Assembly (NCBI RefSeq): GCF_013167455.1 | Contig: NZ_CP038328.1 | Source of the DNA: Escherichia coli O157:H7 | Lineage (GTDB): Bacteria > Pseudomonadota > Gammaproteobacteria > Enterobacterales > Enterobacteriaceae | DNA: 64,000 nucleotides | Reading direction: 5' to 3' (one strand) | Part shown: in pieces, positions 39,001-42,000 of the stretch | How the letters are laid out: the number at the start of each line of letters is the position of its first letter | Numbering within the stretch: position 1 is the first letter of the stretch | Program-made: the position numbers

Positions 39001-42000
39001 CAGGCGATTGGCTGTGATGCGATTTTGCCGCTAACTGAGGATGAGTCCGCCCCTCCCGGGGAATTCCTGTAAGTTAAGCCGTACCTGTTGATTAGCACTA
39101 AACTGGGTAATGAATTTATCTGCCAGTATGAATGATGCCGGGGACGGTTTTGAACTCCTGATGTCGGGTAATATGCAGGATTTTAATATTTGTTGTCGTC
39201 GGGATAATCATTATCCTGAACATAAACTGATACCTTTATCAGAGTTATTTGACGTTAATTATGGACTGAATCTTGAGCTGAATAAACTGGAGAAAGATTC
39301 TTCAGGAATTAATTTTGTTTCAAGAACGTCCAAAAATAATGGCGTCTCCGCCAGGGTTAAATTAAAAGATGGTATTAGTCCATGCCAGCAGCTGTGTTAA
39401 CTGTAGCAGCAGGAGGTTCTGTTATGGAATCGTTTGTACAGGATTCACCATTTTATAGTGGAAGAGATCTTTATTGGTTACGTCCTAAAGTTGAACTGAC
39501 TCTGGAAGAGAAATTGTACTACTGCTCTTGTATAAGAAGAAACAGACACAAATACAGCTACGGGCGTCAGGCAAACCGAACGCTGAAGAATTTACTGGTA
39601 CCGTCATTAGATTCTGTTCCGGCATGGGTATATGGTGTGACAGGGAAAATAATATCTGAATTGTCTGAACGTTGAGACTAAGAGGGCCGGAGGCCAGGTG
39701 AATGGCCACCGGGATATTTATATCAGAGTATATTGGCGATTGATTTTGCCAGCTGGTCTTCCAGATGAGGTTTAGCTTCTTCAAACTTCAGATTAACCTG
39801 GTTGGCACTGGATACAACCCGGGTCTGGTATTTATGCTGGTTGCCGGTTTCTGTGCTTGTCTGAATTTTGGAGCCTGATGTTCCCTGACGCAAAGCTGCA
39901 ACATTATCCGTTCTGACGCTGGTTCTGGTTCGCTCGGCAATCTGAACATCTGTAATCATTGTGTAATTTATATCTTCCACCATTGCATCCGCGGCCATGC
40001 CAATCAGACCGGTAGCCAGTCCAACACCGAGAGTGGTACCTGCCGACCCGGTATTGTACGCTGTGATTCCACCTCCAAGAGCAGCTCCGACTGCTGCACC
40101 TTCATAACCGCGACTCAGCCATCCCTGAGATTCACGCAGATCCATTTTGTCTGCTTTGAGAACGTTAGCCTGGATCCAGTAGTAAGCTTTATCCGGGGAA
40201 GTCATGATCTGATAACCTCTGGCTTTGACTGCATCGGCAATTTTTCCCTGTAGTCCACTCATGTCTTTATCCGACGTGTTTTTGATCTGCAGGAAAACGG
40301 TGCGTTCGCTCGCAGGTTCAAGCCAGATGGTTGAGGTGTACTGACAATAGCGGACACTACCATTTGTTCTTTTTTTAAGCAGCCATCTGATGATATTTTT
40401 CCCTGAAGGCTGCCGGGGAGATATTCCCCAGACGAGAGTGACGACGCTGACGATTGTAGAAAATCTCAATGTATTCCCGTATTACTGAGATGGCCTCATC
40501 CCGGCTCTTAAAACGATAGTGGCTCAGGCTCTCATTTTTCAGCGTTCCCCAGAAGCTTTCCATCGGAGCGTTGTCGTAACAGTTACCTTTACGCGACATT
40601 GATGTTTTCAGACCAAACTGCTCCTGTATGACCCGGTAATCGTATGCGCAGTACTGTGAACCTCGATCAGAGTGGTGGATTAGCCCGGCAGGTGGGCGCT
40701 GGCTCCTGAGCGCCATAAACAGGGCTTTACCTGTCAGCTCTTTTGTCATGCGCTCTCCCATGGCGTAGCCGACAATTTCGCACGTATAAACATCTTTGAT
40801 GCCAGCGAGGTACAACCATCCCTCCTGTGTGGCAACATACGTCAGGTCCGCCACCCAGACCTGATTTGGTGCTGTAGGAGCGAACGTCTGGTTCAGCAGA
40901 TTTGGCGCAACTGGCAGATTGTGGTTCGAGTTCGTAGTCGCCCTGAACTTGCGTTTCTGCTTACAGCGTAGCCTTAGCTCCTTACGAAGACGTGCCAGTC
41001 GGTCACGACCAACGATGATGCCATTCTCTGCCAGCTCCGTCTGGAGCCGCCGGGTTCCATATGTTTCGCGAGTGCGGATATGTGCCACCTTAATCTCCAG
41101 TTTTAGCCGCTCATCACTTTGTTTTCTGTCTGAGGGTTCATGCTGTACCCAGTTGTAATAACCGCTCCTGGATACACCAAATACCTGACACATCGCTTCA
41201 ATGGGAAATTGTTGTCGCCATTGTTCGATTAACGCGTATTTTTCAGCGACTCCTGTGCAAAATACGCTGTTGTAGATTCAATTGGTCAACGCAACAGTTA
41301 TGTGAAAACATGGGGTTGCGGAGGTTTTTTGAATGAGACGAACATTTACAGCAGAGGAAAAAGCCTCTGTTTTTGAACTATGGAAGAACGGAACAGGCTT
41401 CAGTGAAATAGCGAATATCCTGGGTTCAAAACCCGGAACGATCTTCACTATGTTAAGGGATACTGGCGGCATAAAACCCCATGAGCGTAAGCGGGCTGTA
41501 GCTCACCTGACACTGTCTGAGCGCGAGGAGATACGAGCTGGTTTGTCAGCCAAAATGAGCATTCGTGCGATAGCTACTGCGCTGAATCGCAGTCCTTCGA
41601 CGATCTCACGTGAAGTTCAGCGTAATCGTAAGCGTACAGCCTGAACCGTCTGGTCAGAATCTGACGAATTAGACAAAGTGGTGTCCACCAAATAAGTAGT
41701 GGGAACCAAAGTATCAGATATGCAGAAAAATGTGACTCCCGGCAGGCGAAAAGGCTGCCCTAATTATCCTCCCGAATTTAAACAGCAGCTCGTTGCTGCC
41801 TCCTGTGAACCCGGGATATCCATCTCAAAACTTGCTCTTGAAAATGGCATTAACGCCAATCTGTTGTTCAAATGGCGACAACAATGGCGCGAGGGAAAGC
41901 TGCTATTACCTTCTTCAGAGAGCCCCCAGCTACTTCCTGTGACTCTCGATGCAGCTGCCGAACAGCCAGAATCGCTCGCAGAGGACCCGGAAACCCTCAG

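Follow-up and report, generated by a model that had tools for sequence, protein, structure and literature searches.

The window, that is the 64-kb stretch of DNA analysed here as a whole, was found to represent the urease/tellurite island of enterohaemorrhagic E. coli (SpLE1 of O157:H7 Sakai), and the stretch was 100% identical to O157:H7 genomes. Among the genes encoded here were an eptA-like phosphoethanolamine transferase gene (36353-37972), dgkA (38065-38424, minus strand) and traT (39723..40469, minus strand), the latter with its 5' end cut off by IS600. Between dgkA and traT, and convergent with traT, we found two short open reading frames on the plus strand, each with an ATG start. ORF1 (39110..39400) encoded 96 aa and corresponded to ECs_1314 of Sakai, while ORF2 (39382..39675) encoded 97 aa and, from position 39424 on, corresponded to ECs_1313. 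The two lay in different frames (39110 mod 3 = 2 and 39382 mod 3 = 1) and overlapped by 19 nt (39382-39400), exactly as a preliminary description of this DNA had reported. In the Sakai annotation, where the locus spans 1386427-1386992, ECs_1314 is named 'restriction endonuclease' and ECs_1313 'hypothetical protein', both inside the 'phage-like element SpLE1'. Most carriers in RefSeq likewise have this span annotated as two CDSs, and in strain SJ7 the same span is recorded as 'restriction endonuclease subunit S, frameshifted'. A literature search for ECs1313 and ECs1314 returned no papers.

A broken specificity subunit gene

Scanned singly against Pfam and NCBIfam, ORF1 and ORF2 gave sub-threshold matches or none, and no Pfam match of either exceeded its cut-off. 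Both did match the PADLOC profile Specificity_II (PDLC03594, 'Type II specificity subunit'), ORF1 at profile positions 2-50 (E 2.3e-10) and ORF2 at positions 54-140 (E 2.5e-25). As these are consecutive stretches of a single profile, and not parts of unrelated families, the pairing of the two ORFs is not due to chance. Insertion of one T after position 39383 restored a product of 188 aa, which aligned over 187 aa and without gaps (93% identity) to residues 147-333 of the 334-aa specificity (S) subunit ORF of strain NCTC9112. The repaired fragment scored 24.4 bits against Pfam Methylase_S (PF01420; cut-off 22) and matched Specificity_II with an E value of 1.8e-41. The intact S relative scored 39.9 bits and E 1e-88 against the same two profiles; it had no matching model in NCBIfam, and a sequence search of the PDB returned nothing relevant to it. 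The locus can hence be assigned to the S subunit family, for which the preliminary description had seen no confident candidate.

The remnant as a whole (39110..39675, plus strand) is 5'-truncated and frameshifted and represents residues 147-334 of the intact protein, or the 3' 56% of an S gene of 328-334 aa. Preserved in it are the linker between the domains, target-recognition domain 2 and the helix at the C-terminus. The window copy thus has one target-recognition domain where a full polypeptide has two, and no adjacent cognate methyltransferase gene was found in the 64-kb window. With only residues 147-334 kept, the window copy is a fragment of an S family member and not a complete member. 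The best 120 homologues of the fragment were all 265-329 aa in length, with none of half size. The earlier view of a gene of about 190 aa therefore did not hold, given these lengths and the 334 aa of the intact E. coli ORF, the remainder having been lost in a deletion of 2,420 bp.

The start and end points of both ORFs could be explained from the intact gene. ORF1 begins with an ATG at 39110 that encodes an internal residue, Met147, in the intact S ORF; the same frame has a stop codon 18 nt before this ATG, and the final six codons of ORF1 (CQQLC plus stop) are out-of-frame read-through past the frameshift. ORF2 keeps to the ancestral reading frame and encodes the remaining part of the second target-recognition domain together with the C-terminal helix; its ATG at 39382-39384 was created by the loss of one nucleotide (CCATTG to CCATG).

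A large deletion followed by independent frameshifts

Three E. coli chromosomes (NCTC9112, 2013C-3033 and SCU-171) showed the arrangement from which the remnant can be understood. In these, a 629-aa gene annotated as 'HsdM family' (here termed RM) is followed by an S ORF of 328-334 aa overlapping its end, and then by traT, whose placement with respect to S is unchanged in the window. NCTC9112 and 2013C-3033 encode an open 334-aa S ORF beside traT, of which RefSeq annotates the last 171 codons alone even though the full ORF is open. Just upstream of RM, NCTC9112 carries eptA-like and dgkA genes, both as pseudogenes. IS2 has inserted into the S gene of SCU-171, where it is flanked by a 5-bp duplication (GATTT), and removal of IS2 in silico restores an ORF of 328 aa. 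In a further strain, 2015C-3101, the same S gene is struck by IS1203.

Comparison with NCTC9112 (locus L005) defined the deletion. By blastn, window positions 36042-39105 corresponded to 940-4000 of this locus at 98.1% identity, and positions 39102-40332 to 6417-7648 at 95.9% identity. The exact overlap of the two alignments, ACTG at 39102..39105, represents a 4-bp microhomology at the deletion junction. Direct inspection of the sequences agreed with this, as NCTC9112 reads CACTAAACTG followed by ATAATCC at one end and CCGGACTG followed by GGTAATGAA at the other, while the window reads CACTAAACTGGGTAATGAA. The collinearity on both sides together with the 4-nt overlap indicates that the window lacks 2,420 bp (L005 4001-6420), comprising a leader of 129 nt, the 629-aa RM gene in full and codons 1 to about 145 of S. 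The non-coding left flank of the deletion (38840..39105, plus strand) lies upstream of the RM leader/promoter region in intact relatives, and matched locus L003 at 3973-4236 with 88% identity (blastn). An IS end upstream of 39113 had been suspected, since SCU-171 diverges there. This was rejected, as the break in SCU-171 is its IS2 insertion and the upstream DNA of the window is the former upstream region of RM.

The frameshift itself was located at 39383..39384 (plus strand), where one T of CCATTGCC is lost and the window reads CCATGCC. A DNA alignment (loci L003 and L001, column 336) showed CCA-TGCC in the window against CCATTGCC in SCU-171 and SJ7. This extra base in the relatives bears out the earlier proposal that both ORFs are pieces of one frameshift-broken coding sequence. 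Close by, at 39392 (alignment column 346), we found a lineage-specific G-to-C change that replaces Gly by Ala in the repaired frame. Over positions 39353-39413, 471 of 528 E. coli complete-genome records were identical to the window, and the other 57 carried the form undeleted at this site. An identical allele in 471 records indicates that the frameshift is not a sequencing error, and the question of read support, raised in the preliminary description, is thereby settled at the level of the population.

We screened 5,426 complete E. coli genomes at the nucleotide level for both genes. The remnant was present in 571 of them (at 99% identity or more in about 570 EHEC genomes), while the RM gene occurred in 6, none of which is listed as O157:H7. 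In the 64-kb window itself, tblastn with the RM protein (E<=1) gave no match, and no RM or HsdM homologue was found. A sister lineage including SJ7, O103:H2 12009, O111:H8 and O121 showed the same 2.4-kb deletion with the same junction and a different 1-nt deletion, by which GGCAAACC became GGCAACC. A reconstructed unbroken remnant was matched at 99.4% at best, with no open-frame allele in the 5,426 genomes, which means that every carrier is frameshifted one way or the other. The frame is thus disrupted with respect to intact homologues and the gene is truncated as well, as is characteristic of a pseudogene. The 2,420-bp loss predates the 1-nt deletions, which arose independently in the two EHEC lineages, a pattern of neutral decay.

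Mechanistically, the ancestral locus would have encoded a 629-aa RM protein working with an S protein of ~330 aa, in which each of two target-recognition domains would recognise half of a bipartite DNA site. In the window lineage, a microhomology-mediated deletion of 2,420 bp then removed the leader with its promoter-like site, all of RM and the start of S up to about codon 145, and the 1-nt deletion subsequently broke the leftover half-gene into two ORFs.

The parent RM and S system

The 629-aa RM protein contained an N6_Mtase domain at residues 301-535 (E 2.3e-23) and matched over its full length the PADLOC profile REase_MTase_IIG, described as 'Type IIG restriction enzyme-methyltransferase' (E 3.5e-108). 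It was 74-85% identical across 30 homologues, including some from Pseudomonas, Acidithiobacillus and Dethiosulfovibrio, and the motifs P57-E58...E74-C75-K76 and N435-P-P-Y438 were invariant in all 30. A single polypeptide would accordingly carry an N-terminal PD-(D/E)xK motif, that of a predicted nuclease, together with an N6-adenine methyltransferase domain. Overlapping or abutting RM and S genes were found in E. coli chromosomes, on an E. coli plasmid, in Pseudomonas lutea and in Dethiosulfovibrio, and no helicase-family or HsdR gene was among the neighbours of RM and S in any of these. In the intact relatives a separate S gene lies immediately downstream of RM, with no ATP-dependent translocase gene (HsdR/Res).

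Structure prediction gave results of different quality for the two proteins. The AlphaFold model of S (pLDDT 79) showed two domains with a low-confidence linker between them and short linker helices, and its structural matches (Foldseek) were type I HsdS, PacII S and BsaXI S chains. The model obtained for RM was of low quality (pLDDT 55), so that its long Foldseek alignments to HsdM, BsaXI, DrdV and BpuSI lend weak support. In a sequence search of the PDB, RM matched only methyltransferase domains of type I HsdM and not BsaXI.

In BcgI, the archetype of type IIB, the catalytic Glu53 is part of a PD...EXK motif and the subunits assemble as A2B (PMC3592470), and BsaXI is an (RM)2S enzyme with an N-terminal PD-(D/E)xK site (PMC11997821). 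Like BcgI, in which A is nuclease plus methyltransferase and B confers specificity, and like BsaXI, the parent system is a two-gene RM and S operon with no adjacent translocase gene, and its S protein has two recognition domains. Its RM protein has an NPPY methyltransferase domain and an invariant N-terminal PE...ECK motif, at a position similar to that of the Glu53 motif of BcgI. In contrast to BcgI and BsaXI, the window has lost RM altogether and retains half of S with a broken frame. The parent proteins (629 aa for RM and ~330 aa for S) are also far smaller than the 916 and 476 aa of BsaXI, to which neither showed detectable similarity in a PDB sequence search. With type I HsdS the parent S shares the fold and the two-domain plan. 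It passes the Pfam Methylase_S cut-off, and in structure the model of intact S came closest to type I HsdS chains (1yf2, 1ydx, 5ybb_D, 3okg and 7bst_A), yet it is shorter, with ~330 aa against about 370-465 aa in the matched chains. Unlike type I systems, the parent has neither hsdR nor a separate hsdM, and the partner of S has a nuclease-like N-terminal domain.

Profile names, motifs and gene order thus point to a parent that was probably a BcgI-like two-subunit system of type IIB/IIG; cutting on both sides of the site, the property that defines type IIB, would be a prediction for it. The ancestral enzyme may have behaved like BcgI or BsaXI. Taken together, the remnant is very probably a non-functional relic of the S subunit of a two-gene BcgI-like (type IIB/IIG) R-M system that once lay between dgkA and traT.

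Functional status and alternative explanations

The remnant presumably yields no useful product. The intact leader contained one promoter-like site only, which lies inside the deleted DNA, and no plus-strand promoter-like site was found upstream of the remnant in the window. The dN/dS of its domain versus intact alleles was 0.09-0.13 (dS about 0.16), a ratio that, viewed in isolation, would suggest purifying selection. It is more simply explained if this divergence accrued while both alleles were functional. As the divergence from intact alleles predates inactivation, the ratio is uninformative on current selection, and the two deleted lineages differ by 2-3 changes, too few for a selection test.

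Type I systems can function with dimers of half-length S subunits, so that truncation by itself is no proof of inactivity and our argument rests on the broken frame and on the loss of RM. A half-size specificity subunit that still works, its single domain dimerising and directing a methyltransferase/nuclease encoded elsewhere, as truncated type I HsdS can, would fit the complete second recognition domain and C-terminal helix retained in the remnant, the low dN/dS, and the solved structures (Esub1, 8vsr and 8vsq) of relatives that exist as single domains of about 185-196 aa. We nevertheless regard it as extremely improbable, as two different 1-nt deletions have broken the frame in every carrier, the window has no RM partner, which occurs in just the six E. 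coli genomes counted above, the sole promoter-like site went with the deletion, and half-size proteins are missing from the best 120 homologues. There is an equally slim chance that the single-domain remnant might be expressed from one ORF and act as a DNA-binding or decoy fragment against an incoming related restriction system; if true, it would represent an exapted half specificity subunit.

The remaining explanations concern the two ORFs and their overlap. The annotation in Sakai, and in RefSeq for most carriers, treats them as two small genes in their own right. This is very unlikely, if slightly less so than a working half subunit: they encode successive pieces of a single domain, a deletion made the ATG of ORF2 and that of ORF1 is an ancestral internal codon, and in SJ7 the span has been labelled by NCBI's own pipeline as a frameshifted pseudogene of an S subunit. 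A 19-nt overlap is a geometry also known in programmed frameshifts, and ribosomal -1 slippage or a phase-variable switch could in principle yield the full 188-aa product. Yet a slippery heptamer of the form X XXY YYZ is absent at GTCCATGCC, the affected runs are just TT and AAA with no repeat tracts, and intact relatives and homologues encode the protein in a single frame, so that neither a slippery site nor a conserved frameshift is present. The repaired product would, moreover, still be without half the protein and the enzyme partner, and we consider the probability of this explanation practically nil. Just as negligible is an assembly or sequencing artefact that hides an open 188-aa ORF in the true genome. 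Single-base indels are common among assembly errors, but the site is not a long homopolymer, the unbroken reconstruction found no perfect match, and recurrence of the same sequence in 471 independent records effectively refutes this possibility.

The non-functional S subunit relic is thus an ordinary dead gene remnant, and the label of a frameshifted S-subunit pseudogene is already known from some RefSeq records. It resembles other R-M pseudogenes of E. coli accessory islands in having decayed by deletion, frameshift and IS insertion in an IS-rich island, the same S gene having been hit across strains by two IS elements (IS2 in SCU-171 and IS1203 in 2015C-3101) and by two different 1-nt deletions. 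Compared with ordinary truncated or IS-disrupted R-M pseudogenes we saw no notable difference. While the overall importance of the remnant is small, our results correct the annotation, in that ECs_1314 and ECs_1313 of Sakai are one pseudogene, a 5'-truncated and frameshifted S subunit gene. They also record the order of decay in the SpLE1 tellurite-urease island, where the pair of alleles might be of modest use in telling lineages apart. The RM and S family to which the remnant once belonged is itself not present in this window, but is very widespread and strongly conserved, and may deserve biochemical characterisation.

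The upstream phosphoethanolamine transferase and kinase genes

Just upstream of the remnant of the specificity (S) subunit gene (window 39110-39675) the island encoded a phosphoethanolamine transferase (window 36353-37972, + strand; named eptA, ECs_1317, in the O157:H7 reference strain Sakai), paired with a diacylglycerol kinase gene on the opposite strand (window 38065-38424, - strand). This gene pair resembles the known pairing found in mcr-3-dgkA cassettes. The top models for the transferase were the colistin-resistance models MCR-9 (779 bits) and MCR-3-related (759 bits); both scores were far under the respective family cut-offs of 1240 and 1075 bits. 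The product passed the generic lipid A phosphoethanolamine transferase model.

The hairpin and traT downstream of the remnant

A GC-rich hairpin (CCGGAGGCC ... GGCCACCGG, window 39687-39712) separated the remnant from the traT gene convergent to it; the hairpin carried one mismatch in the window and was perfect in relatives (GGCCTCCGG). The hairpin was not flagged by a consensus scan; it is probably a terminator shared by both genes. In the window traT itself was interrupted by IS600 orfB (window 40375-41193), the two together spanning window 39723-41193. Its absent 5' end was found in inverted orientation within window 29916-27131, adjoining an IS600-like orfA (window 29981-30322), together with inverted homologues of two genes that come after traT in relatives, type B L31 and hok. 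Such an arrangement is indicative of an inversion mediated by an IS, in which both traT and the IS were split. In the same island of strain FRIK944, a few kb off and past traT and IS elements, the region L002 13790-16150 carried two RefSeq annotations, 'TOTE conflict system archaeo-eukaryotic primase domain-containing protein' and 'inovirus-type Gp2 protein'.

An inverted repeat at the RM leader

In the strains with an intact system, a 94-nt leader of the gene encoding the nuclease-methyltransferase partner of S (RM) was flanked by a perfect 18-nt inverted repeat (CTGATAATCCGGTATGTT / AACATACCGGATTATCAG; left and right arms at 3998-4015 and 4110-4127 of the NCTC9112 locus, L005). The sole promoter-like site was located inside this leader, and the right arm stopped 1 nt short of the RM start codon. 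The deletion in the window started within the left arm, of which only CTG was left (window 39103-39105). The repeat might represent a pair of regulatory operators, or its two arms might be the termini of a small inserted element.

Conservation of RM and its S partners

For the S gene of NCTC9112 and 2013C-3033, RefSeq annotated only the final 171 codons (6476-6991 in both L005 and L007, the 2013C-3033 locus). This looks like a start-site under-call, since the complete 334-aa S ORF (5987-6991) was open in both strains. The 629-aa product of the RM gene (L005 4129-6018) belonged to an unusually conserved protein family with 74-85% identity among 30 homologues, including those from Enterobacterales, Pseudomonas, Acidithiobacillus, Acetobacter and the Synergistota genus Dethiosulfovibrio, and a few members were RM-S fusions of 783-794 aa. 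The partnering S proteins, in contrast, shared just ~27-45% identity. This difference suggests that the enzyme core of the family is highly mobile and its specificity swappable.
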